Positions 58,155 to 61,100 of a stretch of 64,000 bases of DNA are shown here, piece after piece. The stretch lies in the IMG/VR virus record IMGVR_UViG_2850773344_000009; one strand, written 5' to 3'. Numbering within the stretch: the first letter of the stretch is position 1; each line of letters opens with the position of its first letter. The position numbers are program-made. Source of the stretch: a virus (Duplodnaviria > Heunggongvirae > Uroviricota > Caudoviricetes).

Positions 58155-61100
58155 TGACGCTCATCACGCAGTTGTTTGACCCATCTTGTCATTGTGGAAA
58201 GGCCAACATCCATAGCTTTGGCGGCATCTGCCACCGTGTATTTCTGGTCAACGACCAGTTGAGCGGATTCGCGTTTAAACTCTGCGCTAAAATTTCTTTT
58301 TTTCATTGGAGCACCTGTGTTGTTCTGAGGTGAGCATATCACCTCTGTTCAGGTGGCCAAATTCAGTGTGCCACTTCAGCGTGACTTGGGGCGATTACTG
58401 CAAGGCCAATGGTCTACCCGCTCAGAAACTGATGACCATCCTTAAGAAAGAGCGCAAGCTGTTCCGAGTACATCCTTTCAGTGGCGAGTGGTCAGTCAAT
58501 CCAAACTATGTGGAGTACTTTCGAATTATCAAACCTACTGACCATCGATTCAACCCAAACGGTATAAACATTCGGTTTAACGCTAAGGGGCTGGAGTTCT
58601 TCAGCCGACCTGAAAACGTACTCAAGATGCACAGAAAGGTCATAGCGGTTCATGGAAGCGACGCTGCTAAACAGCAACACATACAGGCAGTAGCAAAGCT
58701 GGAGGGGAGGTAATTCATGACTAATAACACAATCAAGATTGACCCAAGGACACCAGAAGGCCGTAAGGCGTTACGCCTGATGGTGGTACCCACCAAGGCA
58801 CTGATAGCTACTCTGGGTCTGCCTGCCAAGGAAAACCGCCCGTATTACTCTAAAGCTGCCCTCTGTCTCATGGCGGTTGACGCAGGGCTGACCCCAAGAG
58901 ATTTCATGTAATTAACCCACTAGCACAGCTAGCACCACCTTTTGAACTGACCAAGATACGGGGAGACGCCGTAGGAATACCTATGGAAGACCGATGAGTT
59001 TAATCCTTTTAAAACATCTTTTCAAAGGAGAAACAAACATGTCTATTTCTTATCGCAAACTGGATATCGCACTGAGCGCTGACAAAGAAACTGTACTGGT
59101 ATTCGGTCAGGAGCTATCCACTAAGTATTTCACCGAAATTGTCGTTACAACCATGCTGAACAGTACAGGCTCTGACATGGCGAACTCAAATCGTATTCTT
59201 AACGATATTCACGCCGCTGGTCTTGATGCAGGTGATTACGGCAAGTATTCCCGCTGGTGGGCTCAAAGCAACGCACAGGAGCGCCAAGAGGCTGAACGCC
59301 GACGTAAAGAAGCTAAGGCACATCAAGAACGTATGGCTGCTATTCATGCTACACCAGAAGAGATTGCTAAGGCGGTCGCTGAACGTAAAGCCCGAGAGGA
59401 AGCATTGATTAAACGCTTCGGCAATAAAGGGGCCGCTTTCGGGCTGTAACTGATAACTTTCGGTGGCGCTGCTTGGATTCTGAGATAAGACCAATGGTGT
59501 CACCAGTTACTTTTTACGTAGTGCATTCATACAATAAGGAGATATTCATCGTGTCTATTACAAATCAAATTAACAAAGCATCCTCACTGGCTTCTCTGCG
59601 TCAGCCTCAGCGAGATAAAGACGGTCAAATCATTAAGGGGTCTATATGGGGCACTGACATCTCACGCACTGACTATGTTCAGATGACCAATGGTCAAGAC
59701 GCCCAAGTTCTCAACGTAGGCTTTACGGACCGCTCAGGCCGTCCGATGGCCTTCGGGAATGATTCACATGATTTTGTTCAGGCGCTGGAGGACTCTTTGG
59801 ATGAGACCTTCAATGATGGAGACTTCCGCACTGCTGTAATGGAGAATGTCTTCCCTTGTGAGTTTCGCCCATACGGCACTGACCCTACGCCTATTCGCCG
59901 TCAGGCTCTCCAGAATCGCACCGTCCGCTTTAAGCATAATGGCGCGTTTAATCCAGCTAAGGATGCTCCGTCTACCACAGCCATCAAAGGGGCAAGCGTA
60001 ACTGTCACCCCAGTGTTGAACCCTGAGACCAATAAGACGGGCATCCTGTGTTCTGCTACTACTCATGTATCTGACTTCGATATGATGGGCGGTTGGACCG
60101 AGGGGGCATTAATCCAGACTGTAGGTGATATGCAGGTTCAATACTGCCGCCAGATGTTCGCCGCTGTGGTCGATGTCCTGAAAGATACGCCAGACCTTCA
60201 AATCATTGAGGCAGCCCCACTAAGTGGTAAACCGTCTGATCAAGCTGAAGATCTTCTGGATACATTAGCGTTGAATCTTCCGGTCGAGTTGGGAAATACA
60301 CTGAGCGATTACGCTGTATTGGTCCCTGAGAGACTTGAGGCAATCTTGGACCGAGCCGCTCAACGCGCAGGTCATGAGGATATTAGTGAGCTATTGGGCT
60401 GCACTGTATGCAGCTATGCGGGCGATGATACAGGTATCTATCTCCTGCCTAAGCGGTTCGCTTCTATCTCTTTCAGGTCAACTAAAGACGCTAAGACGGT
60501 AGATGTCAAAGTGACCCGAAATAGTAACACTGCTGGGTATGACCTTGAGTTAATCAGTGTGGTCGATGTGTTGGCTACTGGTTCCGTTAAGGTGAAAGCA
60601 GGTGAGTTTGACGTTGAGAAAGACGCCTCTTTCCCGTTGATACATGTTATTCGGTTTACTACCCCCAGAGTAACTATAAACCCTGAGTGAACATAAGGAG
60701 TACATCCATGAGCTTACAGGAGTTGTTTGAGCTCGTCCTCTGTGTCCACTTGGTCTGCCAGATGCTCTACAGGGAGTGATAGATAATAACAATCAGCAGT
60801 ATGCCCGCAATAGCTATTGCTCTGGTGCTTACAGGTCTTCACTTTGCGGTCGGTGGGGGCTAGTGGCGGTAGGTTATGACCTTGTATTAAAAAAATCTCA
60901 CAAAAATCTCTGTAGGTATCTAATAGACAAAGGTCGGTGCCTCTCCCCCCTTGGCCCCTTTCAAGTCTGGACGATTGGGGCCACTGTCTTAAAGTTAGGA
61001 CTTCGGTTACTCGTTCCAGAGTCACGAGAGGACTTGACCAGAGATAAATTAATGTGTAACCATAACTGTAACCACAAGGATTCATCATCCTTTAGGAAGC

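Follow-up and report, generated by a model that had tools for sequence, protein, structure and literature searches.

A truncated tRNA-Gly-targeted island upstream of a Shigella flexneri prophage lysis cassette, and its intact relatives as putative satellite-like elements of T7-like phages

Four tightly linked plus-strand open reading frames (ORFs) of 93, 64, 136, and 379 amino acids (aa) lie between the insertion sequence IS911 and a set of lysis genes in IMG/VR virus record IMGVR_UViG_2850773344_000009 (Caudoviricetes), a stretch of 64,000 nucleotides (nt) hereafter called the window. An earlier note made from the DNA sequence had described them as a cargo cluster of unknown function. The positions and sizes of the four ORFs, the Shine-Dalgarno sequences of genes 2 to 4, and the left boundary at position 58378, where IS911 ends, were all borne out. 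The 93-aa frame is not a gene, however, but the 3' fragment of an Rha pseudogene, and the unit does not stop at the 379-aa gene but continues with a 23-codon ORF, a recombination arm, and an attachment site (att) up to position 61153. A chromosome of Shigella flexneri, GCA_900457185.1, shows the same arrangement, followed downstream by a type VI secretion cluster, and the window is therefore assigned to S. flexneri or a very close relative. We propose, with a probability of about 0.6 for the statement as a whole, that the window carries a truncated copy of an integrative island and that the family to which this island belongs is a satellite-like element of T7-like phages. The features of the locus are as follows.

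57130-58378, minus strand: IS911 (IS3 family), with ends TGAAGTGG... at 57130 and 58378; outside the island and the cause of its truncation.
58381-58713, plus strand: gene 1, 3' remnant (111 codons) of an Rha-family regulator with a KilAC/Ant-like C-terminus; pseudogene.
58717-58911, plus strand: gene 2, 64 aa, function-unassigned; Shine-Dalgarno GGAGGGGAGG.
59039-59449, plus strand: gene 3, SF216/DUF6971 protein, 136 aa; Shine-Dalgarno AAGGAGA.
59551-60690, plus strand: gene 4, 379 aa, GTG start, predicted HK97-fold major-capsid-like protein of a small unannotated family; Shine-Dalgarno AAGGAGA.
60708-60779, plus strand: fifth ORF, 23 codons, hydrophobic (MSLQELFELVLCVHLVCQMLYRE); strong AAGGAG ribosome-binding site.
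61033-61131, plus strand: right recombination arm (P' arm), in which TGTAACC is present twice; alignment shows the arm to be conserved among islands of E. coli, Klebsiella, and Pectobacterium.
61132-61153, plus strand: attR core (TCGATTCCCGCTGCCCGCTCCA), made up of the final 22 nt of a tRNA-Gly carried by a prophage; identical to phage PhiR47_1.

Gene 4 had no match in Pfam, PHROGs, PADLOC, or NCBIfam, and a profile search against the sequences of the Protein Data Bank (PDB) found nothing. The family is a small one, with 59 cluster representatives in a set of 1.84 billion proteins, and Pfam scans assigned no curated capsid or encapsulin family to the protein, to 38 close relatives, or to 10 distant relatives. 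The structure of the protein was modelled together with 38 relatives (predicted local distance difference test score, pLDDT, 68.5). A Foldseek search of the model against the PDB gave 90 matches at E ≤ 1e-3, and all of the matches listed were HK97-fold capsid proteins or encapsulins. The N-arm, the E-loop hairpin, the spine helix of the P-domain, and the A-domain, which are features of the HK97 fold, are present in the model. The gene 4 product is thus predicted to have the HK97 capsid fold. The six-residue difference from the E. coli LR-64-1 copy at the C-terminus falls in a region that is variable across the family. One distant relative of 527 aa (P0064) carries a C-terminal Ig-like/PKD-type domain (He_PIG, 2e-4); some phage capsid proteins bear such domains on their outer surface.

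Gene 3 matches the Pfam family PF22318 (DUF6971) at 1.8e-43, with 147 bits against a cut-off of 27, and its product is the protein of PDB entry 5EUR, which holds three chains, at 136 of 136 residues (100% identity). The title of the entry is 'hypothetical protein SF216 from Shigella flexneri 5a M90T', and the molecule is named only 'Uncharacterized protein'. PMC7132871 cites the SF216 paper as Kim et al. 2017 (FEBS Lett 591:3692). The supplements of the M90T genome paper gave no entry for the locus under guessed locus tags. An AlphaFold2 model of gene 3 (pLDDT 76) has an alpha/beta domain at the N-terminus; a small sheet and two helices are joined in the model by two further helices, long and charged, and by a C-terminal tail that is flexible but conserved. 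The structure shows no enzyme-like fold. The earlier note had seen no recognizable motif in any of the four proteins, which does not hold for gene 3 or for gene 1, whose remnant is of the Ant/KilAC type (see below).

Among the 35 related loci described below, 33 have a DUF6971 homolog immediately upstream of the capsid gene. The ratio of nonsynonymous to synonymous substitution rates (omega) over the family is 0.06 for the capsid genes and 0.07 for the DUF6971 genes (gene 3: 0.07), at a synonymous divergence of 0.6-1.1, indicating that both genes have been under strong purifying selection across the family. SF216 is thereby placed in a new context, an obligate pairing with a capsid-fold gene on an island wired to T7, and its protein could serve the gene 4 product as a scaffold, as a decoration protein, or as cargo. 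Comparison by hhalign of the island capsid and DUF6971 profiles with the two other capsid proteins of the window revealed no relationship (probability <1%), in agreement at the sequence level with the former claim that the cluster is unrelated to the two virion modules there. The same two profiles showed no relation to the T7-like gp10 and gp9 of phage PP81.

The right end of the block is defined by comparison with phage PhiR47_1. From position 61132, which corresponds to a point within the annotated tRNA-Gly of this phage, the window is 100% identical to it as far as the holin. The order in PhiR47_1 is Q, tRNA-Met/Lys/Thr/Gly, holin S, YdfR, lysozyme, and Rz; the tRNA-Gly leads straight to the holin, and the block is missing. 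The arm to the left of the junction recurs at the right end of islands located at the tRNA-Gly(CCC) gene glyU in 34 further E. coli genomes, and its TGTAACC pair is also found in the left arms of intact islands. Because the conserved arm is fused to the last 22 nt of the phage tRNA-Gly just upstream of the holin, the right end of the cluster is the attR junction of a separate integrative island. No second copy of the attR core and no intact tRNA are present in the window.

Lambdoid phages carry cargo between Q and the lysis genes, and the block does lie directly upstream of the holin-endolysin-Rz cassette, the slot to which the earlier note had assigned it. A moron or defence cargo that belongs to the lambdoid prophage and is expressed with it is nevertheless hardly credible. 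The attR junction lies inside the phage tRNA-Gly and bounds the block as a separate island, the uninterrupted PhiR47_1 runs from tRNA-Gly to the holin, the same genes occur in chromosomal glyU islands with an integrase of their own, and the block is absent from 50,697 phage records, in which only positions 61132-61440 of the window found matches.

The left end bears the marks of a rearrangement. IS911, whose OrfA and OrfB are on the minus strand, is flanked by GGC on one side and GCG on the other, that is, by differing sequences without a target duplication, and it cuts both neighboring genes: to its left a P22-type large terminase gene, to its right that for Rha. Since the target-site duplication is missing and the flanking terminase is truncated, we conclude that IS911 marks a rearrangement joining two unrelated prophage remnants rather than a simple insertion. 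The terminase ORF (from window position 56080) has lost its N-terminus and now reads as 354 aa with a TTG start. Gene 1 is open in frame from the IS junction (58381), the first ATG giving the 93 aa at 58432-58713, and corresponds to residues 124-234 of a 234-aa Rha-family regulator that is intact in E. coli 21AR0133 (locus L002, 11631-12335). The open frame from the junction and this alignment led us to regard the '93-aa gene' as a 3' pseudogene fragment. Its profile matches are PHROG 10324 (anti-repressor Ant, 4.6e-6) and Pfam ANT (0.0068). The N-terminal Phage_pRha DNA-binding domain, at residues 12-102 of the full Rha protein, is missing from the window copy, which starts at residue 124.

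Gene 2 had no family match in Pfam, PHROG, PADLOC, or NCBIfam. It is kept at the same position in six enterobacterial islands (cluster c20), other small proteins replacing it in Pseudomonas, and its product could conceivably be a small DNA-binding or excision factor. The 23-codon ORF behind gene 4 has counterparts of 21-46 aa, likewise hydrophobic and with strong ribosome-binding sites, 3' of the capsid gene in L001, L002, L045, L006, L007, and L047; such an ORF follows the capsid gene in enterobacterial islands but not in those of Pseudomonas. The reading frame thus appears to be an overlooked conserved member of the operon, and its product may be a small membrane peptide. Rfam detected no RNA family in 58300-61500, and scans of the cluster for sigma-70 promoters and terminators stayed at chance level. 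A hairpin resembling the T-phi terminator at about 60950-60985 was dropped since it folded no better than shuffled sequence.

To the right of the island, a terminator-like hairpin (61360-61375) precedes the holin, and a DUF1327/YdfR-family gene (61665-61979) lies between holin and lysozyme in the lysis cassette. A 172-aa ORF with no recorded family (63020-63538) follows the cassette, and another IS3-family element extends from 63595 to the end of the window.

Intact relatives showed what the window copy has lost. In E. coli LR-64-1 (NZ_AP027588.1, about 909,566-915,657) and 21AR0133 the whole cluster is present at 93-98% identity in an island of 6.1 kb in total at glyU, in the order glyU, tyrosine integrase (544 aa), a non-coding stretch of 1.3 kb, Rha, a small gene, DUF6971, a 373-aa protein, the right arm, and a tRNA-like core repeat. 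E. coli EPSSH018 (L047) has an intact island inside a lambdoid prophage, with a junction between the 3' end of the phage tRNA and the holin of the same type as in the window. The order there is prophage regulator, tRNA-Ile/Lys/Thr/Gly, integrase (538 aa), DUF4145, an Rha-like gene, genes for 61, 163, and 329 aa, attR, and holin; the 329-aa protein is a homolog of gene 4 (hhalign 99.7%, E 2.9e-27). EPSSH018 would therefore show, intact, the presumed ancestral state of the window. A second prophage-embedded copy was found in IMG/VR (L054). In the prophage-inserted copies (L047, 7660-14400; window, 61154-63032) the island operon aims at the holin-endolysin-Rz cassette.

In the intact relatives an integrase of about 540 aa stands next to a tRNA-Gly, with conserved arms and core repeats, of which the window keeps only attR and the right arm. 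We therefore read the block at 58379-61153 as, in all appearance, the right-hand ~45% of a site-specific island of about 6.1 kb. The island would have inserted into the 3' end of the tRNA-Gly of a lambdoid prophage, just upstream of the holin, and a later IS911-associated rearrangement would have removed attL, the integrase, the cargo slot, the promoter and repeat region, and the 5' half of Rha. We hold this structural account of the window with high confidence. The block had been called the largest in the window that known phage biology does not explain; a decayed insertion now accounts for it.

When one genome per species was scanned, 35 loci came up, from about 30 species of Pseudomonas and from Pectobacterium, Klebsiella, and Pseudescherichia. 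Their layout does not vary: a gene for a tyrosine integrase (480-590 aa) is followed by between one and three variable genes (Bro-N, HNH, DUF4145, Rha) and then by the genes for a small protein, a DUF6971-like protein, and the capsid protein. Islands of E. coli measure 6.1 kb, those of Pseudomonas 6.3-6.5 kb. In enterobacteria, tRNA-Gly(CCC) is located about 5 kb upstream of the copies. The Pseudomonas islands L030 (5626-12331) and L035 (4961-11665) are bounded by direct repeats of about 170 nt (73-77% identity) 6.5 kb apart, with no tRNA or transfer-messenger RNA nearby, and L013 has 41-nt direct repeats 6.3 kb apart. Many Pseudomonas copies carry an Rha gene and a 72-aa gene after the capsid gene. 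None of the islands examined contains a portal, terminase, protease, tail, or replication gene (Rep, primase, or helicase).

The earlier note had offered, with a hedge, a scaffold/capsid-like pair from a satellite, and this guess agrees well with the HK97 fold, the DUF6971 pairing, and the small integrase-bearing islands. The structural likeness of gene 4 to capsid proteins is clear, but its neighbors do not form a standard morphogenesis module, as there is no portal, terminase, or protease gene. As for co-travel of the four genes, genes 3 and 4 move together in the related loci, and the Rha gene and the small gene do so in part.

Between the variable gene and the Rha/Bro/KilA-type regulator, intact islands have one to four phage-type promoters and AT-rich or iterated repeats. 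The promoters came to light by repeat finding, which returned duplicated motifs resembling T7-group promoters. The E. coli islands L001 and L002 each contain, in the 1.3-kb gap, two exact copies of TAATACGACTCACTATAGGGAGA, a 23/23 match to the T7 promoter, and with their flanks these are identical to T7 phi9, phi10, phi13, phi6.5, and phiOR over 26-27 nt. Promoters matching T7 at 23 of 23 positions occur in L001, L002, L004, L007, L053, and L055; L053 has three perfect T7 promoters in tandem, and in L055 the Rha gene is broken by IS1.

The motifs follow the host genus. In the Klebsiella island L007 (K. pneumoniae ATCC 13883, NZ_KN046818.1 near 3.48 Mb; L007 positions 7499-8075), an exact T7 promoter is accompanied by AATTAGGGCACACTATAGGGAGA, present once as a 23/23 match and twice as a near-copy. 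We take AATTAGGGCACACTATAGGGAGA to be a K11-type promoter; each of 167 Klebsiella phages of about 40 kb contains it about 10 times. This mixture suggests responsiveness to two polymerase specificities. The Pectobacterium island L005 has a promoter that agrees at 28 of 28 positions with promoters annotated in PP81, PP47, and PPWS4, phages of the Studiervirinae; in PP81 one such copy precedes the scaffold gene. In the Pseudomonas islands the motif is TTAAAAACCCTCACTATGGC, present in 6-8 copies in each of 60 Pseudomonas phages of about 40 kb.

Genus-matched promoters of the T7 group were found upstream of the operon in 21 of 30 islands. When the span from the integrase to the capsid gene was scanned in these 30 islands with the strict core motif, 40 occurrences fell on the coding strand and 0 on the other. 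The density of the motif in this span, 0.47 per kb, is about 50-fold that found elsewhere (0.0097 per kb). Vector contamination as the source of the promoters was ruled out by independent assemblies, native flanks, and genus-specific variants. Judged from these sequences, the family is likely to depend on a phage polymerase. The window itself has no core motif in its 64 kb, and the best match in the cluster (13-14 of 23) is at chance level.

The unannotated 1.3-kb gap (L001, 10297-11585; L002, 10340-11620) has its two perfect T7 promoters 119 nt apart. An AT-rich block of the CTTAAAG type follows them, together with about 11-15 copies of an 11-13-nt unit CTCTAGGGTCTCT, the repeat GCTCAGTTTTGAGC, which recurs inverted inside the Rha gene, and the 9-nt CACCACTAGCA. 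In the primary origin of T7, the promoters phi1.1A and phi1.1B, whose positions in the T7 sequence we confirmed, stand in tandem ahead of an AT-rich region. The island block shares most of its 9- and 10-mers with the AT-rich region of this origin and with the CCTAAAG arrays at the left end of T7, and it shares 11-13-mers with T7 at 5.94-6.01 kb. The iterated AT-rich region behind the promoters thus appears origin-like. Of 5,426 complete E. coli genomes, 90 (~1.7%) carry the module of promoters and AT-rich repeats, always in the chromosome and never annotated.

T7-group promoters next to a capsid-fold gene might also be expected of a temperate T7-like prophage that has decayed from a 40-kb genome. 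We consider such an origin most improbable: a layout of about 6 kb with direct repeats recurs over four genera under purifying selection, no remnant of an RNA polymerase (RNAP), DNA polymerase, portal, or tail gene is present, and the sequence of the capsid protein shows no relation to that of T7-like gp10.

For the intact members of the family, we propose the following course of events. The single-subunit RNAP of an infecting T7-like phage (Autographiviridae, Studiervirinae) would recognize the island copies of its own late promoters and transcribe the operon, with transcript starts predicted at the G of the island TATAGGGAGA sites. The tandem promoters and the AT-rich repeats would then serve as a T7-type origin for the phage replisome, which would explain the lack of replication genes. 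Finally, the DUF6971 and capsid proteins would form a small shell, which would either compete with phage assembly or borrow the portal, terminase, and tail of the phage; in the latter case the shell could carry the ~6-kb island to new cells. We give such a full satellite cycle a chance that approaches, at best, an even one. That the intact members are true satellites of virulent T7-like phages in every respect, sensing infection through promoters, replicating by the phage replisome, building their own small HK97 capsid, stealing portal, terminase, and tail, and lowering the phage yield, is a tentative view that we rate somewhat below even odds. Where the island sits in a prophage, read-through by the phage RNAP might, speculatively, cause early lysis of the host.

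Several observations weigh against the proposal as a whole. Nine of the 30 islands have no core motif as defined. The k-mer likeness between the island and the T7 origin is confounded by AT-richness and is weak outside the promoters. The island capsid and DUF6971 proteins have no sequence likeness to gp10 and gp9, so that engagement of a T7-type portal and terminase is not evident from the sequences. Neither a small-terminase-like gene nor a recognizable pac site was identified. A search of IMG/VR and metagenome contigs for the junction pattern of the circular form (attP) gave zero matches, and no terminal overlap was seen in Logan contigs. The window copy has lost all of the regulatory parts. 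Finally, some islands with the same integrase and arms lack the major capsid protein (MCP): that of E. coli E41 (L004, 1961-6130) consists of integrase, DUF4145, a perfect T7 promoter, and KilA-N. The promoter platform therefore needs no capsid payload, which fits defence too.

A pure defence island is accordingly the main rival, and the MCP-less variants favor it. In such an island, which is not mobilized, the T7-type promoters would act only as an infection sensor, the integrase would explain only the arrival of the element, and the payload (the capsid-fold and DUF6971 proteins, or KilA-N) would poison phage assembly or trigger abortive infection. The variable slot after the integrase, occupied by DUF4145, HNH, or Bro-N genes, is in line with this idea, as is the count of the close capsid payload in the complete E. 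coli genomes, 2 of 5,426 against 90 for the promoter module. The absence of packaging genes from the islands, the failure to find a free form in the contigs searched, and the fact that read-through in prophage-inserted copies would enter the holin-endolysin cassette point in the same direction. On the other hand, PADLOC gave no match, which also leaves the two-component system raised in the earlier note without backing, and a complete, conserved HK97-fold protein with an obligate partner, a tight island size, and an origin-like architecture exceed the needs of a sensor with an effector. Satellites usually interfere with their phages as well as spread, and thus the two readings overlap. Taken together, we regard a defence island without mobilization as rather unlikely, though as the leading alternative.

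Much less probable is that genes 3 and 4 encode an encapsulin-like nanocompartment with a cellular function that happens to travel on a mobile island, SF216 being the cargo, loaded through its C-terminal tail into a shell of HK97-fold protein. The gene order, cargo then shell, and the conservation of the DUF6971 tail are what such a compartment would show, and a preprint on tailless entities with an MCP and a scaffold describes them as bridging viruses and encapsulins (10.1101/2025.06.18.659913). No encapsulin family of Pfam was matched, however, and the operon stands behind phage-RNAP promoters, together with phage-type regulators, on an integrase island.

For the window, the outcome is more modest than for the family: a decayed insertion, not prophage cargo. 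Because the integrase, attL, promoters, and repeats are gone, the Shigella flexneri copy is an immobile fossil, in which genes 2 to 4 and the small ORF are intact and no native promoter is identifiable. The omega value between the window and LR-64-1 is about 0.33, from very few substitutions, and fits relaxed and maintained selection alike.

If the satellite proposal is true, these islands would be the first satellite system for T7 and its relatives in Klebsiella, Pectobacterium, and Pseudomonas. These phages belong to the best studied and most widely used ones, in molecular biology and as therapy candidates against bacteria of the three genera. The islands would also exemplify natural promoter mimicry as an infection sensor, a new way for a mobile element to detect a phage, and would extend capsid-forming satellites to virulent podophages with a minimal head module of two proteins. 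In addition, the orphan structure 5EUR (SF216) would gain a function and a context, and the presence of unannotated perfect T7 promoters in ~1.7% of complete E. coli genomes would be explained. Within the literature searched, nothing was found on DUF6971, on satellites or promoter-mimicking chromosomal elements of T7 and other Autographiviridae, or on T7 promoters in islands.

Comparison with known systems shows where the islands stand. The capsid-forming phage-inducible chromosomal islands (cf-PICIs; e.g., EcCI2; bioRxiv 10.1101/2022.09.08.507074, PDB 9gyi) encode a portal, protease, connectors, small terminase, and replication module in about 10-15 kb and use temperate helpers, whereas the islands described here have only a capsid protein and one partner in about 6 kb, no replication or packaging gene, and a wiring to virulent T7-like phages. 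The Ccm protein of SaPIbov5 (PDB 7rwz) is a homolog of the helper capsid protein, co-assembles with it, and redirects capsid size; gene 4, in contrast, has no detectable relation to gp10. The tailless 'mini' HK97 entities (Aguilar et al., bioRxiv 10.1101/2025.06.18.659913) resemble the islands in their small genome, integrase, regulators, and MCP with scaffold, and in having no portal, terminase, or tail gene. They differ in their size (~8.9 kb), their human gut source, their RepA/helicase genes, and their MCPs, which match the encapsulin or phage_coat families of Pfam, and no phage-RNAP promoters are reported for them; the present capsid family matches no Pfam capsid model, and the islands have no Rep gene. 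The PICMIs (minimalist chromosomal islands that phages induce) and the PICI-like elements (PLEs) are also small integrative islands that exploit virulent phages and depend on the helper for replication (PMC10803314, bioRxiv 10.1101/639039). A typical PICMI is reported to have no capsid-remodelling genes, PLEs are larger, and the abstracts mention copies of helper RNAP promoters for neither. T7 itself also offers a likeness: its class III promoters and primary origin are mirrored by the two tandem promoters and the following AT-rich repeats of the E. coli islands. The island versions, however, are part of an integrase island within a bacterial chromosome or a prophage, and their origin role is a prediction. 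None of the compared systems joins a two-gene head module and missing replication and packaging genes with promoters copied from the regulon of a virulent phage polymerase.

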